A stretch of 64,000 nucleotides of DNA from Marsupella aquatica (taxonomy: Eukaryota > Plantae > Marchantiophyta). The notes below the pieces were generated by a model. That model was given only the letters and a program-made list of their open reading frames with translations. It was not told the origin of the DNA and did not search any database. Location: NCBI GenBank assembly GCA_973895155.1, contig OZ316897.1, positions 1 to 64,000 on the forward strand, given 5' to 3'. The position numbers and the translations under genes are program-made. Shown here one piece after another: positions 10,211 through 50,740 of the stretch (positions are counted from its first letter, which is position 1; every line of letters begins with the position of its first letter).

Positions 10211-10225
10211 TTCCCACGTCCAAAA

Positions 10226-24054: not shown

Positions 24055-24279
24055 GCATGCGCAAGTATGCAGAGAATGATGTCATTGTCCCGGCAAAGTT
24101 TAAAGAGTTTCTGAACGCAAAGCAAGGTGAAACCGAGGTTGGGTGATGCCGAGAAGAGCATCAATGAGCAGATGGCTCACTAGAATACGATATTGATGAA
24201 AGCAAAGCACTCCTTCACATTGGATGCATTCCTCCAGTACCTTCTCGACCCGATTGTCAACATTGCTTACTTAAACAAG
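24055..24279 (+). pseudogene. Phosphoinositide phospholipase C N-terminal (EF-hand-like) exon fragment
   Basis: KYAENDVIVPAKFKEFLNAKQGETEV..DAEKSINEQMAH*...FTLDAFLQYLLDPIVN...K followed by a GTGAG donor. Frameshift and stop. Second copy at about 59205-59431. Confidence 0.65.
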
Positions 24280-24574
24280 GTGAGACAAAACTAGACGCGT
24301 CAATTTTTCCGTTTCTCATGTCTCGAGTAAGGCACGAATTAGAGTGGAGCCAATCCAGTACTTCACAGTGAATTCTAGCACACTATTGTGGCTGCGGTAG
24401 TCGGAAGATTGTATAAAGCTGTGAAGAGGGTCTATATATGGCGGATCTTTAGAGGTACGGATGGCTCATAGGCAGTTTTGTGACTTTCATGGTCGGAAGC
24501 TGCCTTCAATCTGTCCCTAGATAAGGCTGGGAAATTGGCATAGAGACCTTGCCGTGTATGTTGTATGAGATTGT

Positions 24575-27500: not shown

Positions 27501-30500
27501 AAGTGCAGAGATTTTGGTACTCTGGAGCTAGTCTGGATCTAGATATATCCTAATAACAAGGAACTGGCACTCCAGCTTGCTTTGATGAAAAAAGTCACAA
27601 TGCCATTACCTTCTTATAAATTTACCCTTGTACATTTTATTGTTCAAATTGTTGAACGATTCAAAGTGTAAGCTCATATGGGATCCCATCCGGGTCCCAT
27701 GCATCTAATCATTAAACTGTTAAACCCTTTCAAGGTATTATAAACACTTAATGAACACTCAACTATTATTTGATTCCTAACCATAACAATCTTTATGGTG
27801 CAACCTCTCGCCAAGTAATGAGTATCCACTGATTCCACCAGGCTACAAGTAGTCAATTCAGATTGGCGGCAGAAGAATAATCATTTTGCCTTGAGTAACT
27901 CTGAAGTGTGATTCATTTATGCCTGGTTTGGCCTTGATTTGTCATCCGTCACACCTGGTCATCCCGCCCCTATCCTGACACCGTCCCAACCTCATCCCAA
28001 CCCTATCCCAACCCCACCCGGTCCCAACCACACCCCGTAGGGCAACACGTAAACTTGCCCGTTAACTCAAACCGGGCATTTATCCCACACAAAGATCATC
28101 CAACCCCAGGGGCAGGTGAATAATCATTATGCATGGAGTAACTCTGGAATGTGACTCATTTCTGCCAAGGGAAGATCATCCAAACCCAAGGGAATGCAGC
28201 ACATTGAACATGGTCAGAACATTGAACTACACAAACAAGGAGGGAGCTCGACCTGTACTTGCTCTAGGTTGGTCTCCTAGTGGTGTTGGCTATGCTGATG
28301 AGGAAGAAGCCTGAAGCACTTGTTGCTGCAAGCTGCCTCTCTCCGGCCACAATTCCAGGATCCTGAAAATTAAGCTTCACACCCTGACTTGGGCGTATGC
28401 CCAGGTTGACATTTTCCCTCCCTATCATTCTTATTGTTCGGAGAACATGATTGACAGTGAGTTTTGAAGTAAATTCTGGTGTATTATCCTTTTCCTTTTA
28501 ATTAGTAGATATTTAAAAAGCAGAAGGGTTTGCAGAATTTATCACAAAGGACATGGTTACATTTCATTATATTGAGTTTATGATGGTTTTATTACATTTT
28601 GCTTTGAACTTTTTATTGAATACTCCACGTTTCTCAGATTGCACAAGGGGATCTGGTTGTTGGGATGACTTTGTGAGTGCAAAATCTACTTCCTTTAGTA
28701 GTTGGGAAGCTATCGGCCCTCTTTCACAAGATATTGCCTTACACGTCATTCAAAAGTAAGTTGGCTTCAAGCACTATTGTTGCCAATGATATGAAGCTCT
28801 ACATGCACTTGGACAAATGAGTTTCAGTTTCAGGTTTCTTGTCATTGTTTTTGGTCATCCTCAAGACACTAAATCCTTTTAGTGTTCTGTGCAGTGTCAT
28901 TCATGCCAACATTGTACAAATATTGAGGCGAGACCAAGGAAAGAACTGTACACTCCTTGGGACAAATCAATAGTAGATTTATGAAGGTGAGTACCTCAAC
29001 ATCAAAATTCCCCCTTTCTCCCCACCTACATGTTGAATTATTCATAAATCTAATGATAAAAATTACAACTTACGGCATTTCGGTACTCAGATCTGAAATG
29101 GTTCGTGTACTATTTGACCGGAATTGTAATATTTACTGAATTGGAATTAGAATAAAAAAATTCAGTGGATTTGTTTGCTATAGTGTGGGAAAATCTAAAA
29201 AAATTGAACACCATAAAATTAAAGTTTACACTTTATTGGATTCTTTGTTATAAAAACATTCTTGAACTGTTTGTTAGAAAAGTTCTTAAACTAAAGTCCT
29301 CAAGGTTTTGAAGGACAGTATTTTTGAATGGCTATGATCACAGATCTCACCTTTTGGACGTGGTTACAATTATCCCTATTTTCATTGCTCCCCATGTGAA
29401 TGAGGGTACTTTTATCTCCTGAGGGTACCCTTGTGCATGAGGGTACTCTTATCAGTGAGGGTACTCTTATCAATGTGGTACATTTATCAACGATGGTACT
29501 TAATTAGATCAATGAGGGTACCCTTATCAATGAGGGTACTCTTATCTCCTGAGGGTACCCTTGTGCTTGAGGGTACTCTTATCAACGAGGGTACTCTTAT
29601 CAGCGAGGGACTCTTATCAGCGAGGGTACTCTTATCAATGGGTACGCTTATCAACAATGGTACTTTGATCAGTGAGGGTACCCTTATCAATGAGGGTACT
29701 CTTATCTCCTGAGGGTACCCTTGCGTATGAGGGTACTCTTAAGTATCAATGAGGGTACTCTTATCAATGGGTACACTTATCAACAATGGTACTTTGATAA
29801 TGAGGGTAGTTACCCTTATCAGTGAGGGTACTCTTATCTCCTAAGGGTATCCTTGTGTTGGGCCTTGTCCATGAGGGTACTTTTATTAGTCATAGCAAGC
29901 AACGAAGCGGGCAGGGACCCCATGAAGGCGCCCTGCGCCGGTAGAAGGACTCCAAACGTACTGAAAAGACCCTAAACCTCACCGGACCAGCATTTTGGGT
30001 ATTGCAGGGACAAATACTGGCCGAAGTACATGCCTGAATTTACCTGCTCTATATTGGTTCCCTAAACCAGGGGTGATTTTTTTCATCAAATCCATACATT
30101 GTATCCTAGTTTTTTTCGCACATGATGTACAAACCTACATAATGTGAAAGTGGGGGAGAAGAAAAACAGCAAAAACCAAAGCAAGCAAAAAAAAATTCAG
30201 CTTTTTCCAGGAAGAAAAAAAAACTTCACCGTCAAGGGGGAAGGAAAAAAAACTCCAGCTTCAGGCGCTAGGGAAAAAAACTTGAGGAAGGGCAGGGAAG
30301 GAAAAACAATTTGAGCTTCAGGAAAGGGAAACTTTAAGATTTTAGACGATAGGAAAACTTCAGGTAAGAGTCAAATGTTTTTTTGTAGTATTTGTAAATT
30401 AGAGTCAGGAGTTTTGAACGTATCTATTCTCTTCGGTGAATTTGTTTTGGCTACCTTGTTCCCTAGAAAGGCAAGCATTGTGCATCGGTTGAAGTGCAAA

Positions 30501-33500
30501 GAAGATAGGACGGTATTTTCTTTCCTGGGTATCGATCAATAGACACGTTATTTAAATATGGGGTACCATTTATTCTAGTAAACAATTCTCTCATTACATT
30601 CAATATAAATGGACCCTAAACTCCCCCTGCCCCATTCTGGTCTGGTCTAGTTTTACTCCTCGACACCTCCGTATCTATTTCATACTCAGATTATACATTT
30701 TCATTTTTACCATCAACCCTAGATTTTCAGAACCTAGAAGCGACGTGTGAGGCGCACTTCACACAAATCAAAATTTATTTTCCCCAGTCCCACATGACCT
30801 GCCAATTTTCCCTCACACTGGACACTTACATCTAGATAAAAAAACACTACTCAAATGGATGGCTGTATGACATAACAAATGTGTTGTACAACTCCTCATT
30901 TGTGGCCGAAAACTCATTTGTGGCCGAAGACTGTTGGTGTAACAAACAATCTTCCTACTTTACCTGACCTGCATGATTACATCATTTCGTCACGTTTATA
31001 GTCTTGTGTCCATGTATGTAAAACCCCACATTTTTACAGCCCAGCTTAGTACATTCCTTAATACATTCATTTGTACTTTAATTATGATTATTAGATTACC
31101 CCGGCATTTGCTTCGTATCTATGTGTAGGATTACCCCAGCTTTGTATCCATGGGTGTGGCCAATTTCCAAACATTAACCTTACTAGTACTTTATTGATTA
31201 TAAGATTACCCCGGCTTGCGTTTCGTATCCTTGTGTAGGATTACCCCGGCTTTTGTATTCATGTGTATGGCACAAATCCTAAACATTAATTAATGTATAT
31301 TTATTGATGGATAAGATTACCCCAACTTTCGTATCCGTGTGTATGGCACAATATCCTAAGATTAACTTGTCTAGTACATTGCTTTGTGATTGGATTACCC
31401 CGAGGTTCGGATGTATTCCTAACATTAACCTTAGTTGTACATTACTCGATTATTAGATTACCCTAGCTTGTGCATGATATCCACGTATATGGCCCAATTT
31501 CCTAAATAATATGAACCATAATACCACATTACATGACCTCAACTTTTGTATCTCTTACTGACAATGGCCATTTATCATGTAAACAGTGTCAACAGTGTGT
31601 GGTTTTCTCAGAATACTCTAAACCCTAAACCTTGTTCCTTTTCTTTCAATAGTGTTGTGTGGGTTTATCAGAATACTTGGCCTTTACAGATGAACACCTT
31701 TTAAGATTAAGAGTGTACCAAGGGTTAGCGCGAGGTGCAATACAATGCCCACAACAAGATAGATTAGGCAATTCAACCATACTACCCTGCTGTGCCTGTT
31801 TGTTCCCGAAAAAACCTTCACCCATACTGGAAGGTTGCCCATTCAACCTCCTTATAGTAGCAGACTGAACAGAAATCATCACAACTAATCCAAAAACGCA
31901 GACTACTAGACAGTACAGTGAGTACTTCTGATTATTATACAGTAAGAGTGTGTGTGGTCAGTGATGATGTGGTTTGTCAATAGCTTCTCATCCCACTTTA
32001 TAAAAACAACAGTGAGGACAGTCTGACCAGCACCGCATTTCTTCATTAATGAACATGTCTGTTTACGGTAGTCCACAAAACAAGACATTCCACTCGTAAA
32101 CAAAATAAGACATTCCACTTAGAGCAGCATTGCTCTCCTATTGTTCAACTAAAACCCTAAAACCCTAAACTTATCAAAGTGGCTTCAACTGTGGCTGTGC
32201 GTTATAGAATACCCCCATCCCATGTACCCCCCTTCACCTTCAATACTGTAATTTTGATACGTAAAGACTTTCGTGGCTTTTCTCTTTGTATATTTGAGTG
32301 CATTAATTCTCCATAATGCACCCCTTTTTTTGAGGAGGGGATTATACAAAACACCTACCTGATACTAACACAATATCTATGAATAGAATCTAATATAACT
32401 AAAGAAGGTATATTTTTGGCCAATTCCATAGCAACCACTTCTTGGATGACCCTTTAATTTGAATTTTCTATTTCAGGGATTCACTTTTTCTTGTTTGTTA
32501 CCAAAAAGTCACTCAAGTTTTTACGTACATTAAATGTCCTAGTTACGAGCATTATATCCCACAATGCCCTCTAACCAGGACATTATCCTATTAATACCCT
32601 TCAGAGCACATGGGCATTAATTTGCATTACCCCAGCCCATGGTGGCTGTGCATTTTAGAATACCCCATCCCTCATACCCCCCAACCTTCAAAATACTGTA
32701 ATTTGATACATACATACCCTTCGGAGCACATTGGCACTTGCATTACCCCAACACATGGTGGCTGTGCGTTTTGGAATACCCCATCCCTCGTAACCCCCAA
32801 CCTTCAAAATACTGTAATTTGAAACATACATACCCATCTGAGCACATGGGCATTTCCCACGTCCAAAATTTTGTATCTCATTTCCCACGTCCAAAATTGA
32901 ATGGTGACACATTTGATGCTAACGGAGTTTAAAGGTTTCAACATGAAAGCTATGGGAGTCTACGGTTTAACCGGAAATGTTATGGGAGCCTCCACTTTAA
33001 CCGGAAATGTTGTGGGAGTCCATATGCTGAAACTTGGAGACATACCATGTATCGCATGTGAGACACAGCCTTTACATAAGAGTGTTGTATGGTGGGTTGG
33101 ACAGTGAAGGCGATTTGGGTCCTAGGAGTGTCTGAATGGAGTTGCAACACAGATGGAGGTGAGTAGCAAGGCATGGATACCGCAACCATGGATGTTGTAC
33201 AGAAGAGAAGCTCCATCACTGCACACTCAGCCTGAAACCACGCCACGCCACTGCCACCAGTAAGCATAAAAAACGCAACCATTCGGAAATGCCTTCGCTC
33301 GAAGACTGCATCCGACAGTGAATGACTCTAATCCATCACTTGCTGCAATTATTGACGATGTCAGTACGCCATCCAAGCGATGCAAGATTCAAGATGCAGA
33401 TTGAAGGGAATTTGGAGGTGGCGAGCACAGTCAAGGACCAGATTGAAGGCCAGCGACAGGAATTCTCGAAGGCCAATGCTTCCCGACCAAAATACCGACC

Positions 33501-33984
33501 CAACAATAATGCAGAAGGGAATTTGAAGGTGACGAGCACATTAAGGAACCAGATTGAAGGCTGGTACAAGAATTCTAGAAGCATTGACCAAGCTTTGTTT
33601 CCTTTGTATTTCTCACGAACCCAAATTGAATGGTGACACTTTTGATGCTAACGGAGTCCAATGGTTTCAACATGAATGTTATAGCTGCAAAAGACTTTTA
33701 TTGGAAATGTTATGGGAGTGCGGGACTACAAGTGAGTCACAATGAATGCTGGTGGTGTATGAACACTTAAAAAATAATGTTATGGGAGCCTACGGCAACC
33801 ACCCGTAAGTCACCCTAATCAATACTAGTGGAGTTTAAAGGTTTTAATAATAATGTTGTGGGAGTCCAAATAATGAAACGTTGAGACCGTGCACTGCATG
33901 TAGGAGACCATGCACCGCGCTCCCTAAATACCCTGAAATGGCCTGAAGACCGGCCTCATTGCACGCGCTGTGCAGAGAAGATAT
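24575..33984 (+). repeat. Segmental duplication, block A copy 2
   Basis: Near-identical to 1984-11346. Preceded by non-telomeric ...GAGATTGT. Confidence 0.97.
29396..29890 (+). repeat. GAGGGTACTCTTATCA minisatellite, copy 2
   Basis: Same array as 6801-7290, with unit gain and loss near its 3' part. Confidence 0.9.
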
Positions 33985-34705
33985 TACAGGAACGTACCTT
34001 AGTCGATAGCAGGATCGACCCCGGCTTAAGGGCTTCTAAGCCTTCGTGCTGTCCGCCTTCGATCCGGATTCGATGATACAGGTCCTCAACCCGTGCTCGC
34101 AACCACTTACCCGCAGGCTGCACCCTGTGCACGTCTCGGGTAGTGCGTTCGGCCTGGCGCTGCCACCCATATACGGGAAACCCACACACATATGCGCACA
34201 CATGCATACAATCTCGATTTACACGAAGGAAAATGATGGGAAAGGATTTTACTACAAAGGGAACATATGCGTACACTTAGTTGACACGACAGCCCTGGAA
34301 TGCACAGGTTCAAGGCCGAGGGTGCACACTACAACGGAGCCCGGCTCCGCACTCGCCCGGCGAGCTTAGTCCTACCCCCTCCCCTTGGTACTCTGTCATT
34401 CCCAGAGGTCGGGACTCCCCGCATGTCCCACGGATGTCCGACTCTGAAACTAAAAACCCCCCCTGCCTCTACCGAGGGGTGCACTAAATACTAAGAGCTG
34501 AGGAACGGGGTGTCCTCTCGCCGAAGATTCGCTGACTAAGGTCCTAACTAAGCTGACAGTCAGGCCGGAAGACGGCTGTGTCTTATTAGAAGATCCTAAT
34601 CTACGCAGGCTGGACAGCAGGGCAGCGCTGCTGTACCTAAGGCAGGTGCCTGTCCCAAGAGCCTGACTAAGCCAATCCTAATCCTAATCTATTCCTACTC
34701 CGCCG

Positions 34706-37354
34706 CTAATGCCTGGCACGCTTGCCAGAGCCGCCCGAATGGGAACGGCCATCCCGCTGCCTTCGAAGCCTGTCATTGTCCGCTTTGAGGAGCTAGACCT
34801 GGTCCAGCAGAGATTCGTTCTCTCGCCTCGACGCGTCCGTCTCCTCTGCTGCCTCCTGACATGCCTCCTCCAGCTGCTGGGCGTCGCTCGTCAGTTTACT
34901 CGCCAGCTGGTCCTGCTTCTCGGCCTCGGTTTGGAGCCGCGCCATCTCGGCCTGCAGCGTGGCTATCTCCATCGCGTCCCGCTGGGCTCGCTCCTCGGCT
35001 TCCTCCAGGTCTTTCTGCCAGGTGACAGCTTGTTTCTTCAAACTGTCAATCTGGTTCCGGAGTCGTGTAATCTTGGCCTCGTTCCCAGCTTTGGCCTGTT
35101 CGGCTAGGGCGGTAAGAGCGTACGCCTTTGCTAACAACTCATCGGCGGCTGCAACCTTGGGTCATAGTTGCAGAAGCTCAGCCTCTTGAGCCGCCACTTC
35201 ATTCTTTAGGTACACGGACTCCACCCGGTACCGCTCTATCCTCTGAAGGGCCTCCGACTGGGCCCGACCTGCCTTTACGGCGGCAACCAACTCCTGATTG
35301 AAGAAACAGGCTACCTTCCGGGCCATGAACTCCCCGGTATCCCGGGCAATTTGATGAGAGAAATCTCCCAGAAGCCCGTTCAGAAACATACCCTGTACGA
35401 AGAGTTCCGGGTGGTCCAAGTTGTGCCTGTCCGGATTTGGGCACGGGCAGACATCAACACGCGCAGGGGCCGGGGCAGTGACGTCCAGCCCTGGGGACAT
35501 AACGTTGGAAGGGGCTAGAGTGTCCTCCTGCAGCGATGTCCGGTTCTCCGGAATTGCCACCGGCGGGTCCTTGGGAGACCCGGGTTCGGGTAAGACCTCT
35601 GCCGTACCAACTTCTGTACTTAGCCCGGCTAGTTGGGTCGCATCAACGGTTGCGACGACCGACCCCTCCGGCGCCTCCTCGGTTACGATTACAGCTATTT
35701 GTGGAGGTGGGGTGGGTGAAGCTGGCGTGTCCACTGGACTTCGGGCCTCAGGTTGGGGCCGTCTCTCCAATGCCGGAAAAACCCACCTAGCTGGGACCAG
35801 CTTTGTAACGTTGATGCGGGGAAGGGTTCGTCGATCAAACCGGGCGTACCACTCAAGAATGATTTCGATGTGGCTAGCGAAATACGCCTTCCCACCAATG
35901 TACAGCGTCTTCCTTCGCCGCTCCATCTCTTCATGGAATTTCTTAGCGAAGTACGACGTCCATTTCCTAGGTCGATAGTTCTCGACCTGGATAACCTGGG
36001 CGGCGGAGATCTCCCCCCGGGGTTCCATCATGTGGAGAGCGTACCTCTGGAACTCCAGCCGCTCAGCTATCTCGGGCATGAGGCAGGTCCTCATCACGAA
36101 CCCGTTGTCTACTGATCCCTCTGAGGGAAAACTTGAAGATTGGTACTTGGCCCCCTTGCCCCCGGGAGCCCGTGATTCGACTCGATGGTCACCTTCGGGT
36201 AACCCGAAGATCATCTTGAGCCGTTCTTCTGTGAGGGACATATTCCTTCCCCGCAGCCGAGTCTGTTGACGTACGTCGTCATAATTCTTGACGAATTCTG
36301 TCATGTCCTCCCCGTAGTACCTGCAAGTGTTCCAGGGGAGAGAGGCGAGGTGCTCAAATCCCTGAGTCTTCAGGTACACCGCATGCTTGGGATGGAGGAT
36401 GTTGCTGTGAACGTTTTCCCCCATGCGATGCATCGTCACCTTGGCTACGGCTACCGTGGCCAACGGTAACCCGGATGCAGTGGCGGATTCCTTCCTCTTC
36501 TTTCCCTGTGACTGACTCGGGGAAGGTGATACTTCCCCATCCTCCCGATCGGGCCTGGGGAGTGCCACTGCGGTTGGTAACGGGCCCGGGGCGGCCACGG
36601 TCACCATGTTGTCTGCTGGGGCCGCTCCTGGGGTCAGAGCAGGGGGTGGGGACGATATAGTGTCGGCCCCCCGAGCGCTTGTTCCTCTGGGCCGCCTGGT
36701 CAAGGGTGGGGTAGCCTCGTCGTCATCGCTAAGATCCACAGCGTTGATGACGGAGCGTACCTGTGCTGGCTGGGTGATAGGTGGTGGGGTTTGGCTAGGC
36801 TGCGGCTGAGGCCGAGGCTGAGGTTGCATGGGCACGGGTACGGGCACGGGTACGGGTACGGGTACGGGCCCGGCTGAGTTGGTCATGTTGGTTGATGGCC
36901 GAGTTCCCATGAAGCTCTGCAGGTGCTGGTAGAAGTTCTCCGAAGCGAGTGCGGGCGCCCTTGTTGAACGGTTGGTACTGGACTCGCCGTTAATGACAGC
37001 CCGAACCTGGGCAGGGATGTGGTCGAAGTGATGTCGCTGCAGGTCGATTGTACCCGGGATATTGAAGACCTCGTCCGGAAGCCGAAGCAATGCTTCCCAG
37101 AACCCGATATATTTGTCTCCGTTGAAGAAGTACCCAGATACCTCAGCTGGTCGGTAAAGCTCGCTCTGAGAGGGGTAGTCAAAGTTAAGGACGTAGTGGT
37201 GTCGTCCTGCTAGGCGGATGGCTCTCTCGTATTCGCGTTCGATCTCGTATCGGCGTGGGTTGGCGTGTTTCAATGAATCGGCCAAGTGCCTTCCGGTAGA
37301 TAGGAACTGCGTCCAGAATCGAATGGCCGAGCTGGAGAGGATCATGTGCGACAT
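34706..37354 (-). pseudogene. Element-encoded protein of about 880 aa (novel N-terminal domain, Pro-rich linker, transposon accessory-like domain, coiled coil) with two in-frame stops
   Basis: ORFs 35162-37354 and 34793-35137 share one frame that continues to 34706. Core GFEHLASLPW...EFVKNYD...LRGRNMSLTEERLKMIFGLP aligns by eye with element 1. Confidence 0.8.
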
Positions 37355-37451
37355 TCAGAGGAGATAGTAGTGGCGACCTAGAGAGAACGAGAGAGCTGGG
37401 GTCGAAGCTGGCGCGCGGACTGATGGACTGGTGCACTACAAAGGGTTGGCT

Positions 37452-37462
37452 CCCCTTTTATA
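37452..37462 (-). promoter_or_regulatory. TATA box (TATAAAAGGGG) about 100 nt upstream of the element-2 ORF
   Basis: LTR-promoter-like TATAAAAGGG about 360 nt from the TG terminus, followed by a CT-rich leader and the ATG at 37354. Confidence 0.55.
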
Positions 37463-37919
37463 CTTTGAGGGCTTGTCGATCCCCGACGTCTCCTCGACGC
37501 CCATAGGTTGAACCGCTCACGCTTGTGGTGTACCGGCCACTCCGCCGGTCTGAGTCAGCGTGCGTCAGTGGCCGCTTCCTTAAGTTCGTTATACGGACCC
37601 GAGGGAGGGGCCCCTCCACACTCGTAACCCGGGTGTGCGAATAGCGACCCGCCGCCAGCCCGAACCTGGAGTCCCCCTTATTGCCTAATGATGTCCTACC
37701 CCTAATGATTACCTAAATACTGTCGTTATGCTAATAATAGCGGCCTAAGACCCACCTAACGCGCGTGCCGAGCGCAGTTAGACTGAATCACTCATTAACC
37801 GCCGTACCGGCGGCGTCACAGACGGGTACAAAGGAAGATAGCAGGAGAGCTAGAACTATAATGCGACAGAAGTGGCAGTAAGTTAATTTGAAGGCTGCTT
37901 TCACGCTCTATCAAAAAAT

Positions 37920-38618
37920 ATGAAAAAGTTTTGTCTTGGTATGGACATCCAACGACAACTGCTCCAAAGATCTCCTCTCAAGGCACTTGACAAACATGCC
38001 GTAGTGAATGACTACAAAGCAAACTTTGACCCGTGTAACCAACCAGACTTCAAGCAGTTGGCATCTATCTACATCAAATGGGGCGACCCGGTGATCTATG
38101 AATTTATCAAGTTCATTGAGGCGTCGGTGGGTAAATTTACTCGGGCTAAGCTAGCCTCCAATATTGAGCATCATCACATTTCAGCTCTGGTGGAATCCAC
38201 ACTCAAGATTTTCCCAACGGCTTAGTGACTCCGAGGTGTCTACTATCCTCTTCGACTACGTGGGCAGGAATCTGCGGTCAGTGTTGTTTTTGCTTCTCCT
38301 ACAGGCACTTACCGGCCGCGTGTTCTACATCACGGCCCCATTATTTTGACAACCTGGTAACACAATTCAACATTCGTGAAGCAAGAACTCAACATCCCAC
38401 ACATCAAAAGGAACGGCCGGATCACGTGGTCCTACAAGTGTGCCAAGGGGTGGAGTATAAGGCAAGGCAGAAGGCAGCTTTTTGGCAGGCGTAGGCTGAG
38501 GAGCAGCAACAACGGGAGGAAGCTAAATTACAACACCTGGCATTACGGGCCCAAGAGTTTGAGGCGGATCGGGCATAGACCCAGGTGTGGATTAACATTG
38601 AGTCTAGAGAGTAAATAA
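37920..38618 (+). pseudogene. Degenerate coding remnant of unknown family
   Basis: Protein-like 101-aa ORF with overlapping frameshifted continuations, lying between element 2 and the third 1.1-kb unit. No motif recognised. Confidence 0.3.
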
Positions 38619-39250
38619 TATATCACAACTGTACAGAGTGAATTAGTTCTAATCAGGAAGCCTGGTCTTCTTTAATTTGTATCTCATTTCCCACGTCCAA
38701 AATTGAATGGTGACACATTTGATGCTAACGGAGTTTAAAGGTTTCAACATGAAAGCTATGGGAGTCTACAGTTTAACCAGAAATGTTGTGGGAGTCCATA
38801 TGCTGAAACTTGGAGACATACCATGCATCGCATGTGAGACACAGCCTTTACATAAGAGTCTTGTATGGTGGGTTGGACAGTGAAGGCAATTTGGGTCCTA
38901 GGAGTGTCTGAATGGAGTTGCGACACAGATGGAGGTGAGTAGCAAGGCATGAATACCGCGACCATGGATGTTGTACAGAAGAGAAGCTCCATCACTGCAC
39001 ACTTGGCCTGAAACCACGCCACGCCACTGCCACCAGTAAGCATAAAAAACGCAACCATTCGGAAACGCCTTCGCTCAAAGACTGCATCCGACAATGACTC
39101 TAATCCATCACTTGTTGCAATTATTGACGACGTCAGTACGCCATCCAAGCGACCCAAGATTCAAGATGCAGATTGAAGGGAATTTGGAGGTGGCGAGCAC
39201 AGTCAAGGACCAGATTGAAGGCCAGCAACAAGAATTCTCGAAGGCCAATG

Positions 39251-42200
39251 TGTGATGCCTAGACAGGAATCACTCGGCCGGTTAAGTGGGTAAAGCAGGA
39301 AGGCACCCTAGGAACACCTTAGTATAGGGACAAAACAAGGAAAATATAAACAATTAGGGGCAACCATGGAACCCGGGCAGAGGCCGGAGGTAAGGCTGAG
39401 GGTGAAAACCCGATTAGGGTTAGGGCGCGTTAAGCATCGGCGGCTAGGAAGGATCAACGGGAAGAAGGACCGGCAGAGGAGAGGGGTAAGGAGCGCTTGC
39501 AGGAGATGGTGGCTCATTTGCGAGCACGAACTAGGCAGACGACTACGGGAGGCCAACTACTGTCAGCTGCTTAGGCAAGCACTCGGGGAGAGAGTAGATA
39601 CCGACGATCGACCTAAGGAGGGTATGAGCAACGTCAATCAAGCGGCACATTTCTGGGGATGCCTGTTTGAACGGGCAACTGAGTACATCAAGACTTACGA
39701 GGACGAGGAGTCAGAAAGGGCAGCTCGAGAACGGCAGGAGCTCGCTCGATTGTGGGAGCTGCACAAGACGGCTTTCTTAGGAGGCGAACTCATCAAGGAC
39801 GAGTTCCTGTGGACGCCTACTTCCAATCAACTCGACAATCTTCTGTTTTGCAAAGACAGCGTCGTCGGCATCCGAGAGGCCATCAAGAACTGCAACGACA
39901 TACATTGGGAATTAAAGGGTAGCACGGAAAGGTGGACCCAGGCAACGGTGCTAGGAGAAACCTCCACGGCAGCAGAGATGAAGAGGAAGGGGGCCGTCAA
40001 CGATGAAGCCACCCCGGCAAAAAGAACGAGGTCGGCGGCACCAAAGAGGCCAGCCGAGCAGCAGAGCAGGAGGCAGGGAGAAGCCGAAGAGGAGGAGGTC
40101 GATCCCATCAAGGCCATTCCAACCAGGGATGACACCTGGAAGGGCTGGGCGGCAACCCTACCGGTGGAGGTGCAACTACATTTTGCACGGGAGGAGGATG
40201 CATGCTTTACGGCCATGCAGACCAAGAAGTACCAAGGCTTCATGGCCGGATCCGGCTTGGAGGCTTTTGTAAGATTACCATGGCTGAAGCCGGAGGTACC
40301 GGAGTCAGACCTATTAGAATTCGTGGGGTCATGGGAACCCGAGACCAATTGCACGAGGATATATGGGAAGGATTTCTATCTTACTCCCAAGGTAATTGCC
40401 GAAGTGTTTGGCTTGCCGATAGGCAATAAGACCAAAGTTGATACCAGGAAGACCCTGCCTGACAAGGAGTTCCGGTCGTTCCCCGGGCCATCAACGAAGA
40501 ATGGCTTCTTCCGGAACACCTGCACCAACCCGCACATAGGAGAGATGATCGACTTCTTGCGGGTGACCATGCATTGTAACTTGCCGAGGGCAGAGATCGG
40601 CAAGGCACAGGTCTATCTGGCAGAAAGGCCAGACCCAAGCCGGGACTACAACGGGTACCTCCTCAACCAATTGAAGAAGATCTTAAAGGAGGAGCAGCAG
40701 GTAATCGGCATGGGGAGCGTGTCGCGGCTTGGCTATCACATGCCGCTGTTGTGCCGGTATGCCAGAGGTCAGACTTTTGCCCCGGTACTTCCCCTGCAGG
40801 TAAGGGCAAACGAGGAAGCCTCAACCACCTGTTAGTCCTACGATCGAGCAGGTGTTTAGGCCAGGAAGGAAGACTTGCCGATGCAGCAACCAGGCATGCA
40901 GAGTCTGCTGAAACTACTGGAGAAAGAAAAGAAATTGGCATCGGCAACAACAACGGCAACGGCAACAATGCAGGACACTACTACAGAGGTAGGCCTACAC
41001 CGGCTCACAAGAGAAAACCCCTTTGCTGGAGACAAGGAGAGAATCAGGCCGGAATCCAAGCCAGGTGTTCGAATGTACGTGGGAACCTCAAGCTCCGAAT
41101 CTGAGGCAGAATTGCCTGAAGCTCCTACCGACGAAGAGGAGAGGGAGAAGCCGGACGTCCAAGAGGTAGAGGAGGCAGTGGAGGACTGCAGCCATGATCA
41201 TTCCGGCTATGGGTCGGACCATCACGTTCCAGGAGTAAGGACCTGTGGCCGGTTTGTCCCCACACTTCCAAGGGTAGTGCGAGGGGACCCCAACCAGCAG
41301 AGTAGCCCTGAGTCTCCCCCACCAGATGTTGCTCCCCCGAGCTTCGACGGCATAAAACAGACGGTGCAGGAATTTCAGGAGCGAATCAAGCAGGAGGAAG
41401 AGGCCGCCCTGGCTAAGGAAAAGGATTTACCAGGAGGAGATTGGCCGGAGGACATCAGGCGGCTAGCCGAAAAAGGAAGCAAACCTCTAGCCACGATTGA
41501 AGAGATCCGCAGGACGGCTTGGGAGTAGAGGCCACGATGGGCGATGCCGATCACTTCTACTTACTCCACCTATGCTAAGAATAGAGCCATGGAGTATGGT
41601 GAGATGTGTGGGGAACTTGCGCTCGGCATCTTTGGAGAGGAGTTGGAGGTAGGACCCTTTTTCCATAGGGAGCAGTTGGAGAAGCACCAATTAGAAGAAG
41701 CGGTGGCTTTAGAGAGAAGCAAGAAGGACGAGGTCATTCGGCGGCTTAGGAGGATGGAAGCCGAGATTGAAGATCTAAGGGCGGCCAAGAAAGCCCAAGA
41801 TGAACTGCGGATTAAACGACATGAGCTGAACATCATGCAGGGGCAGTTGGACACCGCGCAGGCTGATAATCAGAATATCAAGGATAAACTGACTCAGACG
41901 CAGGAAGAGTTGGCTGACACAATCAAAGAGAGGGAGAAGTGGAAGCAAGAGCTGAAGAATACAGAGGAGGCCCACATAACAGCCAACAGCCGGGCCATGG
42001 CGGAGACCCAAAGAAAGGAATGGGCGTTGAAAGGGGAGCTCGAGAAAATCCGCGGAGCCCTTGAGCAGAAGGAGGTCGAGTTAGGGAAATCCTATCAAGG
42101 GATTATGGCGCTGCAGCAGGAGCTTGCGTCCCTGACGGCCAGCTTCAAGACCGACCTAAGGGAGAAGGACGAGATGCTCGAACAGACTTACGCCAAGATG

Positions 42201-43856
42201 AACCAGATGGAGTCTGTCATCATTGCAGAGCTCGACAAGGAGCTAAGAGCAACCCAGGAGGAGAGGGCTACCTTGAAGAAGGAATTGGAGGAAGCCCATA
42301 GGGAGCAGGAGGAGGCCAAAAACGAGCTGGAGGGGGCACGTAAGGACCTGGATGAAACCCAAGAGGAGTTGGAGGAAATCACGAGGAAGATGGAGAACCT
42401 ACAGCGGCGGGCCGACAACCAAACAGAGCGGCTGAAGAAACAAGCCGCAGTATTTAAATGCTTAGCTGCAGCAGGTCCATCTCCCGTTGGGACAAACCAG
42501 TTACCAGGGGTGGTAATTGCCGAAGGACAAGCCGCGCCAACTGCACCAGTGCCGGAAGTAAGTGGGAAGGGGAAGGGACCAGCTGCCGAGCCACCAACGA
42601 AGAAGAAGCGGAGACCTTCAGGGTCAAGGAGTAATACGACTTCACAGGCCGTGGTGATCAAGGAGGTAGACCCAGCACCGACCCCAGACAGGGTCACGGC
42701 TAAGGATCCAACTACCCTAGGGGAAGGGGAGGCCGAAGCCGAGGGAGTGGCTGAAGCCGAAGCCGTGGGTATTGCCGAGGCCGGTGTCGAGGCTGAAGCC
42801 GAAGGTGGACCCAGTCAGGCCGATGGAGAGTTGACTCAGTCAAGGGCAGGTAATCTGTCAGAGAATGAACCTACGGCAGTGGCTGAGGAGGAAGCGTTGG
42901 GGGCGTCCATTAAGGATCCACCACCGGTGTCGTGACGGTGCAAGGGCGCCGTTCCTTTTAGGGAGGGCGGACGTGGAGGGAGGAGGCGTGAGTGGGCAGG
43001 GCGGGCGCGGATCTCCACGTTTAGGATTAGGATCAGAACCAGGAGCGGCCCTGACACTTAGCTTAGTGGGATTGCGGTCCCACTGGTAGGAGCAACACTT
43101 GTGCTCCTGCCTTGCTGTACATAGGTAGATTCGGGCAAGTAGATTACTGTTAAGTAGATTAGGCTTACGATGCAAAGAATGGCGGATCCACTACCAGGAT
43201 AAGTACCTGGGCAGCGGGGAGCTCAGGGCCTCTTCTTTAGCAAGTTTTTAGTTTGCACCAGCCGGGCTGGGATCAAGTAGTACGAGAAGCTCTCGGTTAG
43301 TCATACAGTGACCCTTGTGTATATTCATGTTTCCTCATGCCTAAGAGCTGAATAGAGTTGGCCTCACGGCTTAGTTCGCAGAACTTGTGTATGAGATGTA
43401 CTGTTTGTATGGCAAGTGCATGGTATGACTCAGTCAGAATGAGTCATTTTGCTATTTGTGTGTCGCATTAACTTGTGTGAAGAGTGCCCACATCAACAGA
43501 AGGAAGGAAAGTAAGCAGGGGAGTGAGAGTTGGATGTGTCGAGCTGAGAGAGGTCTTAGCGGCTTAACCAAGCCTATTGGGGATCATTCTGGCGGCGGAA
43601 TCCAAACATACCTAACAAGACGGAGGGGAAGATAGGGGAAGACAGGGGAAGGCCTATATTAGGCCGGCTACGTATCTCATGACCCGATGAAGGATCTGTC
43701 CAGTATATGTGTGTAAAATGTTAATAGTAGTAGTAGAAAGTTAGCAGCGTCCCATGCCGCTAAGCCGTGGAAACGGCCTCGCCAAGCACGAAACCTGCGG
43801 GAATCGGCTTGAGCTGGGGGGTTTCTTGGGTTTAGGGAGCCATGGGACGCACCACA
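39251..43856 (+). mobile_element. Protein-coding solo-LTR-like element, member 1 (4606 bp) with 5-bp TSD CAATG
   Basis: The empty site GAAGGCCAATGCTTCCCGACC is seen in the other two unit copies. Here it reads CAATG(39246-39250)-TGTGATGC...GCACCACA-CAATG(43857-43861), giving 7/8-bp inverted termini with TG...CA ends. No internal long direct repeats noticed. Confidence 0.92.
39366..42935 (+). pseudogene. Element-encoded protein of about 1100-1190 aa, one frame interrupted by three TAG stops
   Basis: ORFs 39366-40835, 40875-41528 and 41544-42935 are all in one frame, with TAGs at 40833, 40857 and 41526. The homologous start is probably the ATG at 39624 (MSNVNQAAHFW). Core GLEAFVRLPW...EFVGSWEP...IYGKDFYLTPKVIAEVFGLP, then a long coiled coil and an acidic tail. 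Confidence 0.85.
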
Positions 43857-44511
43857 CAATGCTTCCCGACCAAAATACCGACCCAACAATAATGCAGAAG
43901 GGAATTTGAAGGTGACGAGCACATTAAAGAACCAGATTGAAGGCTGGTACAAGAATTCTAGAAGCATTGACCAAGCTTTGTTTCCTTTGTATTTCTCACG
44001 AACCCAAATTGAATGGTGACACTTTTGATGCTAATGGAGTCCAATGGTTTCAACATGAATGTTATAGCTGCAAAAGACTTTTATTGGAAATGTTATGGGA
44101 GTGCGGGACTACAAGTGAGTCACAATGAATGCTAGTGGTGTATGAACACTTAAAAATTAATGTTATGGGAGCCTACGATAACCACCCGTAAGTCACCCTA
44201 ATCAATACTAGCGGAGTTTGAAGGTTTTGATAATAATGTTGTGAGAGTCCAAATGTTGAAACGTTGAGACCGTGCACTGCATGTAGGAGACCATGCACCG
44301 CGCTCCCTAAATACCCTGAAATGGCCTGAAGACCGGCCTCATTGCACGCGCTGTGCAGAGAAGATATATACAGGCTGCACGAAAATGTATATATATGTAC
44401 AGGCCTCATAGCACGCGCTGTGCAGAGAAGATATATACAGCTCCCTAAATACCCTGAAATGGCCTGAAGACCGGTCTCATTGCACGCGCTGTGCAAAGAA
44501 GATATGTACAG

Positions 44512-45897
44512 AACCGAACAATACCCCGACCCTAACCTGCCTGCCTGCCACAGTGCACTATCTTAACCTTACCTATTATAATGGTTCTACCCTGGATCTA
44601 AACACTCACCAAAGCCCGGCGTGCCAATGAAGCAAAAACTTCGCCGCTTGAAGTAACGAATTCAATCAATTACTGCAGGCGACCTTTAGGCTTACGCTTC
44701 TACCTACTGTATAGCTTGAATGGGTGGGGTTGGCACATCACCGTGTAGAAGTAGGGTAGTTAGTGCCAGTGCCAGTGCCGCTCAACGACAAACACTGAGC
44801 TTGAAGGGTGTGGTGGCCGCATCACCGTGTAGTACTAGGGTACTTAATTATTAGTACAAGCGTCACTCAACAAGAAACACTCAGTCGCATATTCTGCTTG
44901 CAGCATGTCTCTCATACTCAGCTAGTTCAATGCTTTCATCAGGCGACGGGTATGAAACACTGTTCATTCGCACATTTCACTTTTCGGGCTATCAGCCGGC
45001 GAGGCAAGGCGGAGCTCGAGAGACACAATCGCTCTTACCCAGGTTTAGGGTTCAACCATCCTTTGGTTTCATTCTTTATTCACGCTATAACGATGGTGAA
45101 TCAGGCAAGACATTATTGGGGCTGAGTTCTTGAGTACGGGGGTATACTCGTAGCAACATACAAAGAGCAATAGCCAGAGCGAGCGGATGAAGAGAGATCT
45201 CATACAAAAGTTGTGGGAGCTCCTTGAGGTTGCATTCGTCGGCGGGGAATGCATTTCTGTGGATCTTTTATGGTCACCATCGGTTGATGAACTCAACCGC
45301 ATTTGGTTCGAGGGTTTAGGGTTTAGGAGGATCAGTTGTTGTCGGTAAGGCAAGCGATTGATAGGTGTCCAGACAACAGGTGGGTACTACCAGGCTGGAC
45401 GTTGAAGTGGACGCCAAAGGCTATGCTAGGTGAAGGGTCACGGCGAGGAAGCAACTTGGGGAAACAAGCTCTACTGGCAGCAAATGCATGCGGGAAGAAA
45501 CATGGAGAGGCAATCGTTGTGCCACCGACAAAAATAAAGAGGAGTGGAGCAGGTCGGGAGTCAACACGACCGGGACAAAACAGGACACCGACAGTGCCAC
45601 CAATGAGTCTAGGTCAGAATAGTGAGACTGGGGAAGAACCGGGAGGATTTGATGTTGCGGTCACCACATCGACGTCGAAGGATTGGAATTGGAAGGGTTG
45701 GGTTGACACGGGAGCGGAGGAACTTTGACTCAAATTTATTCGGGATGACAACGATGTATTCTGAGTCATAGTTTTGGGCAGGTATCCCAAATTCCTACAC
45801 GGGTTGAGGCTGGAGAAATTTTTCAGGTTACCCTCGACTGCCCAAGATATAACCCACAAAGAGATGATGAAGTTTGTAGCTAATTGGGATCCTGAGC
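44512..45897 (+). mobile_element. Truncated, degenerate member 3 of the same element family
   Basis: From 45093: MVNQARHYWG*...LWELLEVAFVGGECISVDLLWSPS...VRQAIDRCPDNRWVLPG...WKGWVDT...RYPKFLHGLRLEKFFRLP...MKFVANWDPE, matching element 1 (NQAAHFWG, LWELHKTAFLGGE, WKGWAAT, KYQGFMAGSGLEAFVRLPW, LEFVGSWEPE). The left boundary is approximate. Confidence 0.75.
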
Positions 45898-45902
45898 CTC
45901 AA

Positions 45903-46565
45903 TGGATGGGAGGGGCGGGGGGCTCCAAGATTCCCCACTGCAGCCTCCCATGGGAGTCTGGGCTGTCTCTGCGGCGGATGTCGGAGGAAAGAACAAAAGA
46001 AGGCTCCAAGAGTGATGGTTTTCTAGAGTCAAAAAGTCCGTAATCCTCAATCATCCAGCATACTATCAGATTATCGTCAAATGATTCCTTTGGCCTATCT
46101 GCCTGTCCAATGCCGCAACTCAATCCCACTTCCGTTTCTCTCTCTCACCCTCTCTCTCTTCAAAATTTGACAAAAATCAACAACTTTACTAAAAAAGAAT
46201 GCAAAGCGTCCGAATACAAAAAGTAACAGTCCCACCAAATTGAAGGAAATCTATTTCTTTGGGCAGTGAGTCACGTTGCCCTTTGGGCAGCTTGAAACCT
46301 TGATTAGAAATTTTGTCTGTAGCTCAACTCCCAATGTGATCGAGCATTAAAATGAAGCATTATAATAACTAAAATGGCAACTGCCCCTACATCACCGATG
46401 CCTTGGAACTAGTGTAGAATGAGGCATTGGCAGCTAGCTCTGCGAGTTGCCCTTTCCCTCATACGATGGGCTGGATGTCACAACTCCAAGGTTTCAGTCA
46501 GAGGCACAGATGAGACCCGGTCATCGTCCGCAATTGGCAAAATATCTCATGCCACCAAGCCTTGC
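45903..46565 (+). repeat. Dispersed duplication of about 0.6 kb, copy 1
   Basis: Matches 49441-50016 (TGGATGGGAGGGGCGGGGGGCTCCAAG...GCCACCAAGCCTTGC) with indels. Confidence 0.9.
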
Positions 46566-49440
46566 ACGTGCAGTGAGGAGAAGATGTGTACAGACCGGTC
46601 TCATTGCACGCGCTGTGCAGAGAAGATATGTACAGAAAAAGGATATGGTCATTTTATTGGTTATAAGGGAAGACTTGAGAATTTTTGTAGAAGAACAATA
46701 GGGTCTTTTGAATCCAAATTTTGGAATATTCCATCTTTATAGGGGTTAATTTTTTTTAAAACTTTCATTTTAGGGGGTCCAAGGCCTAAAAATGTCGCAG
46801 GTGATGGGGAGGTCCGCATATAGTGAGACCCCCAAGGCTGTGCAGAGAAGATATGTACAAATTGCCTCAACAATTTAAATTAAGAGGACTTGTGATGTTA
46901 GACACGCCCATGGAGGAGTTGTGAAGTGAAGGTGGGCAAAAGGAGAGCAAAGGAGAGCAAAAGGGTGAAATAAGGGAAGAAGACACACAGGGTGGGGTAT
47001 GATGGCCATGGAGTCAGTCATGGGTGGAGGTGTGGGCAGTTCATGGGGCAGTTAGGCGCTGCCACGGTCTGGCCAATGTGGAGAGGGCTAGGAAAGGAAG
47101 GGGAGAGGGAGAAAGGGTAGGACAGGTATTTAAGAGGGATTGAAGTGAGTCAAGAGGGGCCAAGACTGATAAATAACCACCATTGGCCTCCATACATGCA
47201 ACAACCAACCAAGCTTCCTTCCCCAAAGGAAGAAAAGCCCCACCACACAATCACCAACCAAAAAACAAATATGACCTCTTAAAAAACACAAAATGGCAAC
47301 AAACGTTCCAAAAACTGTCTCCCCACCTCCTAAAAAACATTAATATGGAAAGAGGGAAAACCTTTCCAAAAATGAAAAAAATTACCTCACTTTGGTCATC
47401 CGCCTTTCTCCATCCCTAGCCATCATGCTATACCTATCTGATTAAGTGTAGGCTGTACCTATATAACTTGCACATCCTGTACCACTATCAAATGTACTAA
47501 CTGTCTACTCTTGAGACACGTACTCTTAATAAACATTTGCAAACCCTAAAATAGCTTGCCCCCATTTTCACATAATTCACTCTATCAAATGGACTCATAT
47601 GAAATCTACTAGCTACACTTGAGCCACATACTCTTATACATTTGCTTTAGTTTATAGCCTGCCCCATTTTCAGATAATTCACTCTATCAAATGGACTCAT
47701 ATGAATTGTACTCATTACACTTGAGAGGCCTCCGCATACTTAGAAATGGACTCATATGAATTGTAGAGAACAAATGAGAAGGATATCATGGATTCACTCC
47801 AAAAAGCTAGTTTGTATATGGACCACATAGTACTCTTTTTGGCTGGATTGAATATTATAGAGGTTAAGATAAGATTAAGAATCTGAGAGAATAAATTTGG
47901 AAACCTATGATGGATTCCCTCCAAAAGCTAGACTGTAAACAAAGGAGTAACTGTCTTTGTTTTGGCAGCATTGGAAATTATTGTGGTTGATCTATGTTTG
48001 GTTAGACTAAAGGCCCAAATAATTGTCCTACCAACTAAGCCTAGGAAAAGCATACACTGGGACAGCGTTATAAGACTTCTCCTCTCTAACTTATGAATTC
48101 CTGGTATTTGAGAAATAATTGGCCGTGGTAGGTGTGAACTTTGAGTCGCCACCCGAGTCGCCACCTTCCCCATCTAAGGAAAATACAACTCAAGTTGAAA
48201 AACATCAAGAAAATGATGGTCCACATTGATTTCTCTTTGTAAGTTTTCGCACCTGCAATTGATCTGAAGCCAATCAAGAATGCGTTCTTGACTTTTCGGC
48301 GATGGGAAGTCTTCCTAAAGAAGTTTGTACAGAAATATGTACCAATGAGAGAGAAGCGGAATTGATGCTCAGTCCAATAAATATAGTGAAAATAATCCCA
48401 CGAATGATTACGGGCTAGTATTCGCACTGCTCTTGCCATCAAACCTGTGGGATATATATCATTGCTTCTTGTTCGGTGCTCCGTGAGATATCATGTACAA
48501 CTCGACTCCCAATGTCGATGCTCTTTGAGAACCAATTTGGATTTCCATTAGACCTCCGCAGCTTCTTGCTGGCTAGTGAAGACCGCGAAGTTACAATGCA
48601 ATTATTGTACGTAGAGCCTTAAGATTGTCATGGCTGAAGTTTCCAGACTTTAAAACGGTATGTTCCACTCCCCAGATAAGCTTCTCTAGCTGCTTTACTT
48701 TGTTGGTTTGGTGACCATCGACAACAAGATGTGAGCAATCTGACGTTTTGCACCTCCATCATTAAGTTAGAAGACAATTGCTTGCGTTTCCTCTGATAGT
48801 CGTTCAATTTGTAAGTAGCTCCTCCCATGAGTAGCGAACTACCTACCCTCAAGGTATCCCAAAAATGTAACTCTGACTCTTAGGTAGTCCATCCAATCAT
48901 GTAAGGCTACCAGTAAACAAGACTTCAATTATTCTCTTGGGAGCGTTTAGGGTGCCATCCGATCCAGCCACCGACCTTGTTACCTCGCATGACGAAACCT
49001 ACAAGCTCGCAACCCCGATCCACATGGCTGCGGAGTCCGATTTCAGTTGAAGATTTCATTCCGATTTCATTCCGAGGTGATCTAAAGAAATCTGTGATAA
49101 TTGGCTTCACCGGCATAAAATAGTCATAGAGAGGCTAGATCGAACGTCCTTATGGCTAAGTTCAATGGCGCAGCGTAAGCAAGTCTGTCAAAAGTGTCCA
49201 CTGATTCATCCAGTACGTGTAGCTCGTCAATTAATGTCTGCGTAATTAAAATCTACAACTGAATTTTTTTTGAAAATGGTTGTTTTGAAGTACTTCCAAC
49301 TCTTTATGTATTATAATACAAGAAATGTATTATAAACTCATGCTCCCAAATCCGAGTCCCAAATCCCAAGGGTCTGGCCCAGGTCTCTCCTCCAACTCAA
49401 CCCCAAAAGTAGATTATCTGGGACACTGGGATCGCCTCGG

Positions 49441-50016
49441 TGGATGGGAGGGGCGGGGGGCTCCAAGATTCCCCACTACAGCCTCCCATGGGAGTCTGGG
49501 CTGTCTCTGGGGCGGATGTCGGAGGAAAGAACAAAAGAAGGCTCCAAGAGTGATGGTTTTCTAGAGTCAGAAAGTCCGTAGCCCTCCTCAATCAGCCAGC
49601 ATACTGTCAGATTATGCCTATCTGCCTGTCCAGTGCTGCAACTCAATCCCATGTCCATTTCTCTCTCTCACCCTCTCTCTCTTCAAAATTTGACAAAAAT
49701 CAACAACTTTACTAAAAAAAGGATGCAAAGCGTCCGAATACAAAAAGTAACAGTTCGACCAAATTGATCTGTAGCTCAACTCCCAATGTGATCGAGCATT
49801 ACAATTGAGCATTGCAATAACTAAAATGGCAACTCCCCCTGCATCACCGATGCCTTGGAACTAGTGCAGAATGAGGCATTGGCAGCTAGCTCTGCGAGTT
49901 GCCCTTTCCCTCATACGATGGGCTGGATGTCACGACTCCAAGGTTTCAGTCAGAGGCACAGATGAGACCCGGTCATCGTCCGCAATTGGCAAAATATCTC
50001 ATGCCACCAAGCCTTG
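49441..50016 (+). repeat. Dispersed duplication of about 0.6 kb, copy 2
   Basis: Matches 45903-46565. Confidence 0.9.
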
Positions 50017-50375
50017 CGCCACCCAGAGCTAGAACCAACCCGAAATAGAGACGGTACGTATATAGTGGGACTCAATAGAGCTCGATCTTACTTAGAATAT
50101 CCAGAATCATCTCCACCATTACCTCCCTCTACGTGGCATACCTTATTCAAGCTCCTCTAACCGATCCAGGACTATGACCTTCAAATTTGTCACTTTGAGA
50201 AAGCAGCAACTGGCAATATATAGGTGTTTGCAGCAACTTTGATATCTGTGGGGGCTGATCAGAGAGAAACCAAGTCGGAGCACATTTGTACAAGACCGCG
50301 CGAGGGGGGCGGAGTCTAGACTGGTCACAAGATCGACAACGAATTTCCAGGAGGTAAGTACACCATGTCGCAAAT

Positions 50376-50740
50376 TGTTCATCTTCAAATTCTTCATTGT
50401 TCCCTTCAGCTCTTTGTTGGCCGCTTTCATGGCAGACATAGTCTGCTGAGCATCCTTAATGCCTTCGGTGGCAAAGGAAAATTGCTCTAGACTGAATGTT
50501 TGATTATACATTTGATCCCGCTGCCCTTCAAACATCTTCTTCTGCTTCAGAATGAGCCTTGATGGCCTCTTGTGCGGGAACAGGACTTGTTCGCTTGATC
50601 TGCTCTCGGTATTTGACCAGTTCTACGTCTAATTTCTTGATCTTTTCATAGATATTATCACCCCTTTTATTGATACGCTCGGCCGCCTCCTCCACAGACA
50701 GAAGGAGCTGTTTCCTTCTTTACTCCAAAATGCGCCTCAT
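50376..50740 (-). pseudogene. VPS60: VPS60/CHMP5 (Snf7-family ESCRT-III) 5' fragment, intronless and frameshifted
   Basis: Reconstructed MRRIFGVKKE...SVEEAAERINKRGDNIYEKIKKLDVELVKYREQIKR...MFEGQRDQMYNQTFSLEQFSFATEGIKDAQQTMSAMKAANKELKGTMK. Confidence 0.88.

Follow-up and report, generated by a model that had tools for sequence, protein, structure and literature searches.

A 4.6-kb TG...CA element of the liverwort Marsupella aquatica, likely a solo long terminal repeat, carries a gene with a predicted VANC21-like central domain

We analyzed the first 64,000 nucleotides of contig OZ316897.1 of the liverwort Marsupella aquatica (GenBank assembly GCA_973895155.1, positions 1 to 64,000 of the forward strand), hereafter the window, with a focus on a 4,606-bp insertion, element A, that contains a long gene and is likely a solo long terminal repeat (LTR). 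The window begins with 283 CCCTAAA repeats and also holds an exon of an SMC-family gene and leucine-rich-repeat pieces, indicating that it represents a land-plant chromosome end. Element A, its target-site duplication (TSD), and its parts are listed below; a polypurine tract is abbreviated as PPT, and P0016 and P0025 are related proteins described further on.

39246..39250 (+), left TSD copy, CAATG, a single copy of which is found in two empty sibling sites
39251..43856 (+), element A, a 4,606-bp TG...CA unit, likely a solo LTR judging by its ends, its TSD, contigs from public sequencing runs, and a PPT-like flank
39251..39623 (+), 5' non-coding part of 373 bp, containing a TATA-like TATAAA (39345) and a number of TTAGG motifs; putative promoter region
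39624..42935 (+), gene, 1,103 codons in one frame; probable start codon, placed by alignment with relatives
39624..39953 (+), N-terminal region spanning ~110 aa, with weak conservation across element B, P0016, and P0025
40122..40790 (+), central domain, predicted to adopt a VANC21/plant-mobile-domain fold and Transposase_32/ATHILA-like in its language-model features
41664..42413 (+), charged stretch poor in proline and glycine, likely a coiled coil, followed by a basic KKKRR motif at ~42600
42936..43856 (+), 3' non-coding part of 921 bp that contains TTAGG motifs and terminates in GCACCACA
43857..43861 (+), right TSD copy, CAATG

The termini of element A (TGTGATGC at the start and GCACCACA at the end) form an imperfect inverted repeat in which 8 of the 10 terminal letters pair, and the unit is enclosed by two perfect copies of the 5-bp TSD. 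The empty form of the insertion site was found in two siblings of the host repeat, at ~10830 and ~33474, each of which has one CAATG and no insertion. With gaps excluded, the left flank of element A was 96.7–97.0% and the right flank 97.5–97.7% identical to these siblings. Given that both flanks resemble the empty siblings at ~97%, they look like one host-repeat copy that was interrupted. The empty junction was also present as a contig joint in three of the four public sequencing runs compared. Within element A, self-BLAST with a word size of 7 revealed no significant repeat, the best match being 18 bp long (E = 0.06).

One coding frame makes up 72% of element A, and each of the remaining five frames has 25–48 stops. 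In this copy, the coding frame is interrupted by stops at 40833, 40857, and 41526. A small indel at 40835–40860 varies in a share of the other copies; a net frameshift at this position in element A was considered and ruled out, as the region is a single frame with stops. We found no YxDD, CCHC, or protease motifs in element A, and its sole HHCC-like pattern lies on the minus strand and is interrupted by stops. Likewise, no gag or DDE transposase motif or Pfam match was found in the protein, for which fold was compared for the central domain only. Basic motifs resembling nuclear localization signals (NLS) are present, and the maximum 19-residue hydropathy is 0.8–1.1, hence the protein has no hydrophobic segment. 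An earlier sequence-only reading of this DNA had reported the TG...CA ends, the perfect 5-bp TSD, an empty site visible in two sibling repeats, the lack of an internal direct repeat, and the lack of YxDD, HHCC/DDE, and CCHC motifs, all of which our analysis bears out. That reading had also described one frame over about three quarters of the element, which agrees with the 1,103 codons observed, but the gene is not intact in this copy.

Part of the stretch is present in twelve of the 14 public sequencing runs listed, and six of these contain at least half of its words; none is recorded as RNA, which says nothing about expression. Four runs were compared along the element. Summed contig depth, which is no copy number, was mostly 10- to 100-fold higher inside element A than in its flanks in runs X1–X3, and none of the four runs showed a depth step along the element that would mark a shorter LTR. 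Contigs departed from the element exactly at 43856 (35 in X2, with an agreement of 0.38, 3 in X3, and 3 in X6) and at 39251 (4 in X3). Given these sharp ends with many different flanks and the lack of a depth step, the 4.6-kb form is the common one and inserted at many sites. Element A thus belongs to a multi-copy family that is colinear over the whole 4.6 kb and inserts as a unit. No joint linking both element ends across the gene was present among the 15 joints listed out of 115. In X1–X2, joints from 43856 to 40747, 41284, and 43002 were also observed, in which the 3' end abuts the interior of other element copies, consistent with nested insertions.

In all four runs, the stop at 41526 was missing from 89–100% of the summed depth, and the long contigs closest to the element A copy differed from it by ~1%. 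Given the rarity of this stop and the low divergence, element A is a young, privately broken copy. Synonymous changes made up 13 of the 24 listed coding differences, in comparison to the 34% expected for transitions (P = 0.03), which is a mild sign that the gene may be under selection.

Four lower-depth runs were compared at the 5' end of element A. In X6, a run of low depth, the only contig across this end carries a PPT-like tract, AGCAAGGGGGAT, directly before the TG, and the host flank of element A had no cover. We take this tract to resemble plant PPTs. Three 5' flanks were singly resolved, of which this one is PPT-like and the other two look like host DNA. The chance per site is 1.8% for a run of at least 8 purines and 0.06% for the G5 pattern, which was defined post hoc. 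The colinearity of the PPT-preceded contig with element A extends over at least 270 bp. The deepest X3 contig (72.8 vs. 15.2 and 8.9) reaches 18 letters beyond the 5' end. A PPT is defined as a short purine run adjoining the 3' LTR (PMC7264820), a definition that the X6 tract fits.

The TG...CA ends, a TSD within the 4–6-bp range around one unit, and an empty site are features expected of a solo LTR, as is the lack of both an LTR pair and gag-pol motifs inside element A. The combination of a very long LTR with a 5-bp TSD further fits the Athila/Tat (OTA) group, to which it is not exclusive; non-chromovirus Ty3/gypsy elements are known to have LTRs of up to ~5 kb and TSDs of 4–5 bp (PMC6317226). 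A 22-base pattern of the 3' end of element A had no match in metagenome contigs. Given a PPT-like flank, and with no primer-binding site (PBS), gag-pol, or LTR pair seen, we consider it likely, yet unproven, that element A is a solo LTR derived from a large LTR retrotransposon.

Two further members of this group of elements lie in the window.

33991..37820 (-), element B, of a distant family with the same layout; starts with TGTGACGCC; 3' end and TSD missing
45087..45896 (+), remnant C, a decayed third member matching residues 1–240 of the element A protein

Element B has a TATAAAA at 37462, 108 bp upstream of the ATG of its gene (37354–34706), which comprises 882 codons with two stops. The central domains of A and B share 29% identity over 185 aa (E = 9e-19), and the two elements have no significant similarity at the DNA level. 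The ends of remnant C were not found; a direct repeat pair at 45885–46565 and 49427–50017 (88–96% identity, ~3.5 kb apart) cuts this remnant with its first copy. Between element B and the host repeat lies a 112-codon frame (37887–38225, +) without a convincing Pfam match, possibly a fragment of another transposon.

The host repeat itself is part of a larger arrangement. A segmental duplication of 9.2 kb with 98.6% identity (2201–11347 and 24792–33990) is located just inside the telomere, and a third, partial occurrence surrounds element A. A short unit that contains a hairpin-like TGCAC...GTGCA is repeated at 33945–33990, 11300–11347, 44302–44511, and 46592–46638. The three host-repeat siblings all diverge immediately past this unit, and the truncated end of element B falls exactly there.

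In the HMMER search, 21 matches at E ≤0.001 were recovered among 1.84 billion representatives, of which 18 were compared; P0005, P0017, and P0020 were left out, as they matched over short stretches only. Two of the ten records looked up carried a species name, both being Calypogeia fissa proteins (CAM6090539.1 and CAM6122807.1). The longer members have a common plan: their N-terminal region shows weak conservation, and they also contain the central domain, linkers of low complexity, and a probable coiled coil. A sequence profile search of the PDB gave no match at E ≤1; raising the limit to E ≤10 added three weak rows, all unrelated. Word-index protein searches, the final one confined to proteins of 1303–3720 aa, found no match, PHROGs had no row for A or B, and scans of viral contigs, metagenome contigs, and prokaryotic genomes recovered no related locus; one of the viral-contig scans counted a single relative. 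A protein language-model atlas placed Transposase_32 and ATHILA clusters at 0.84–0.90, a similarity that may serve as a lead only.

The predicted fold of the central domain was more informative for element B than for element A. The model of the A domain was poor (predicted local distance difference test, pLDDT, 57.5) and matched nothing with Foldseek in either the viral or the PDB library; in the structure comparison, the VANC21–DNA complex was its only whole-domain row (Z 3.1, 181/223). The B domain was modeled with a pLDDT of 88.5 and a predicted template-modeling (TM) score, pTM, of 0.86, and among 48,161 chains its best match was VANC21–DNA (PDB entries 9lnk/9lnj) with Z 7.8, a root-mean-square deviation of 4.3, and 197 of 208 residues, the next row having Z 2.5. 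Foldseek likewise returned VANC21–DNA for this model (probability 0.92, TM 0.56, E 0.082), with other rows at 0.10–0.17, the next at 0.13–0.17. The wide margin over the second row, together with the full coverage, speaks for a real match to VANC21. The central domain of the paralogue in element B is thus modeled with a VANC21-type fold, and the element A protein is predicted to group by fold with VANC/plant-mobile-domain accessory proteins.

TTAGG was the top 5-mer of the non-coding ends in A as well as in B, on the same strand, with 10 occurrences in each vs. 2.8 and 2.0 expected. Its density in these ends was 7.7–8.5 per kb, compared with 0.56 across the window. Words containing TTAGG are candidate target motifs of the encoded proteins, as far as their distribution suggests.

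VANC21 has been shown to bind short motifs of the same orientation in the non-coding parts of its own transposon, VANDAL21, and to remove methylation (PMC5735166). A coiled coil is predicted to mediate its dimerisation (10.1101/2024.04.02.587720), and the DUF1985 domain of VANC is described as structurally like the plant mobile domain (PMD) of MAIN/MAIL1 (10.1101/2024.09.27.615353). The element A protein resembles VANC21 in its predicted central fold, in being transposon-encoded, in its likely coiled coil, and in the enrichment of same-strand motifs in the non-coding parts of the element. However, VANC21 belongs to a Mutator-like (MULE) DNA transposon of Arabidopsis, and DNA binding and an anti-silencing function of the element A protein are only predicted. 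MAIN/MAIL proteins, which reportedly have a fold in common with VANC DUF1985, act at DNA motifs against Polycomb silencing (bioRxiv 2024.09.27.615353); unlike the element A gene, they are host genes. The PMD is described as angiosperm-only in PMC8616336, and PMC4408406 describes copies in gymnosperm Tat elements.

Among retrotransposons, the PMD-coiled-coil open reading frames (ORFs) of Ogre/Tat and the Athila ORF (PF03078, PF20167) similarly encode a PMD/Transposase_32-kind domain followed by a coiled coil (PMC4408406, PMC6317226, PMC11728184), and Ogre/Tat/Athila elements also have LTRs of up to ~5 kb (PMC6317226). In contrast to the Ogre/Athila ORFs, which are described as lying 5' or 3' of gag-pol in the internal region, the element A gene is located wholly within the TG...CA unit, and its protein has no Pfam match. 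Extra ORFs of plant LTR elements are in general described as internal (PMC7264820, PMC11963269, PMC11728184, PMC6317226). In early-branching plants, Tat is present in Marchantia (PMC10508981) and Athila/Tat in Apopellia (PMC12885004), and the Tat-like elements of mosses and early lineages are reported without extra ORFs (PMC4408406).

Among plants, the nearest precedent for a gene located in an LTR-like unit is Revolver, a high-copy element of ~3 kb with one gene (139 aa), the ends of which resemble the 5-kb LTRs of barley large retrotransposon derivatives (LARDs) of the Sukkula type (PMC2851119). These LARD LTRs of ~5 kb are non-coding (PMC2851119), and element A differs from them in that 72% of it is one coding frame. 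Narrow phrase searches of the open full-text literature found no report of a gene of such size inside a plant LTR. The vertebrate retrovirus mouse mammary tumor virus (MMTV) encodes in its LTR the sag protein, which is unrelated to that of element A and much smaller, and the MMTV LTR is much shorter. MMTV sag parallels the likely arrangement in element A, in that the LTR holds an accessory gene in full and this gene has an LTR promoter of its own (PMC9412291).

We favor, with moderate confidence in the explanation as a whole, a solo LTR carrying an anti-silencing gene of the VANC/PMD fold. The unit occurs at many sites; it has TG...CA ends, and its insertion duplicated 5 bp of the target. It is likely that a full element, probably a Ty3/gypsy element of the Athila/Tat group, integrated, and that its two LTRs then recombined, leaving one. 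The central domain would have the fold of DNA-bound VANC21, as modeled for the paralogue. Given this fold, we lean slightly toward a scenario in which the protein, expressed from a promoter near the 5' end of the LTR, would dimerise via its coiled coil, bind motifs in the LTR ends, and sustain transcription of the element; promoter, gene, and target sites would then stay together in an intact solo LTR. If the upstream TATA box acts as the genomic promoter, the gene would be the first cistron of the genomic RNA, like the 5' PMD-coiled-coil ORF of Ogre (PMC4408406), but located within the LTR. Alternatively, the gene may lie in U3, which would parallel MMTV sag (PMC9412291). Retrosat2 is an earlier example of a short U3 within a long LTR (PMC3485330). 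A further extension, which we consider somewhat less likely than not, is that liverworts have several giant-LTR families, each with a complete VANC-fold anti-silencing gene, promoter, and binding motifs, in which LTR-LTR recombination would leave a self-contained desilencing factory.

A number of observations weigh against this explanation. Neither a PBS nor gag-pol nor an LTR pair was seen in the window or in the run contigs, and the mixed 3' consensuses of 3, 3, and 35 contigs showed no TGG start and, in a self-priming check, no match within one mismatch. The PPT-like tract comes from one contig of one run, the depth of which is a mean and cannot show a multi-copy junction, and the X3 consensus of four 5' flanks fits the X6 tract in 6 of the 18 last letters. 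Given that element B has no 3' end or TSD, it cannot confirm the layout. With regard to the protein, Pfam at the curated cut-off gave no PMD, DUF1985, Transposase_32, or ATHILA match for A, B, and the 18 relatives; the other four of the five B models had pLDDT values of 50–71; the Z of 7.8 is below 8, in the range of a possibly common arrangement, with a Foldseek E of 0.082; and identity to VANC21 is only 9–12%. The top-word count in the non-coding ends was reached in 168 of 500 shuffles for A, where it is not significant, and in 21 of 500 for B, and TTAGG is the telobox core and may therefore be a site for a host factor. Finally, the selection test took 24 of the ~500 differences found.

Four other explanations were weighed. 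The one that survives best, although we consider it unlikely, is a solo LTR with a gene whose protein serves another purpose, such as packaging, RNA handling, or integration targeting. It shares all LTR evidence; the sources that describe the extra ORFs of Athila and Ogre call their functions unknown (PMC4408406, PMC6317226), and a fold in common with VANC21 shows no function. However, the characterized proteins reported to have that fold, VANC and MAIN/MAIL, oppose silencing at DNA motifs (PMC5735166; bioRxiv 2024.09.27.615353), and the basic NLS-like motifs without a hydrophobic segment also speak against such a role.

Somewhat less probable still is a non-autonomous 4.6-kb unit without LTRs that borrows a retrotransposon integrase and has no gag-pol parent. 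The many unrelated flanks, the lack of a visible PBS or internal region at the 3' end, and the two of three singly resolved 5' flanks that are not PPT-like would all fit such a unit, whereas the PPT-like tract of one contig is positioned exactly at the 5' end. Solo LTRs scatter their flanks alike and often outnumber full elements, as in Retrosat2 with 429 vs. 162 (PMC3485330), and a unit without PBS and PPT would have no evident route to linear cDNA. The sequence-only reading had left a choice between a gene-bearing solo LTR and a new class of integrase-mobilised element; the former gained support from the PPT-like tract and the 4.6-kb colinearity, and the latter became less likely. The protein is less enigmatic than that reading implied: the modeled fold of its central domain is neither that of gag nor that of a DDE transposase, and the structure comparison identified a VANC/PMD-like fold instead.

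A non-autonomous DNA transposon, either VANDAL/MULE-like or Ginger-like, that retains only a VANC-like gene is very improbable. The fold match is to a DNA-transposon protein, but the 5-bp TSD and the single gene without a transposase match do not fit a VANDAL or MULE element, MULE TSDs being ~9 bp, and a PPT-like flank has no place in a DNA-transposon model. Ginger elements also end in TG...CA, but have TSDs of 6 bp (GingerRoot) or 4 or 6 bp (Ginger1/2), and the inverted ends of element A measure ~10 bp, compared with the 100–150-bp terminal inverted repeats of GingerRoot (PMC6839031).

Equally improbable, and largely refuted, is an internally deleted ordinary element with its ends derived from two short LTRs and its gene from the internal region, where such extra ORFs normally lie, as the sequence-only reading had correctly remarked (PMC7264820, PMC4408406, PMC11963269), given that no short LTRs, internal direct repeat, or LTR-sized depth step were seen, no 5'–3' joint was present among the listed joints mentioned above, the 4.6-kb form is the common one, and the PPT-preceded contig is colinear over 270 bp or more.

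If the solo LTR does carry such an anti-silencing gene, solo-LTR formation would not neutralise the element but keep a trans-acting gene in place, and LTR-LTR recombination, the usual host route of deletion, would leave behind a factory that keeps the family unsilenced. The VANC/PMD fold would also be placed in retrotransposons of the earliest-branching land plants. The predicted link to the VANC21 fold offers a testable function for the long-unexplained PMD/Athila-type extra ORFs, and a 4.6-kb unit that combines a promoter and a gene with candidate target motifs could be a simple test system.

Elsewhere in the window, the host gene pieces consist of an SMC N-terminal exon at 19901–20431 (-), a frame at 50143–50622 (-) that may resemble an ESCRT-III (Snf7-like) protein, and leucine-rich-repeat fragments at 54310–55836 (-). 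A 467-codon open frame at 60497–61900 (+), in DNA of low GC content (30% in 60001–61000), had no Pfam or PDB sequence match and one weak PHROG row; it contains an H-x-D...H pattern near its end, which we take to recall 2-oxoglutarate/Fe dioxygenases of the TET/JBP kind. A further pair of dispersed repeats, at 21476–24535 and 57302–59726, shows 88–96% identity with internal indels.

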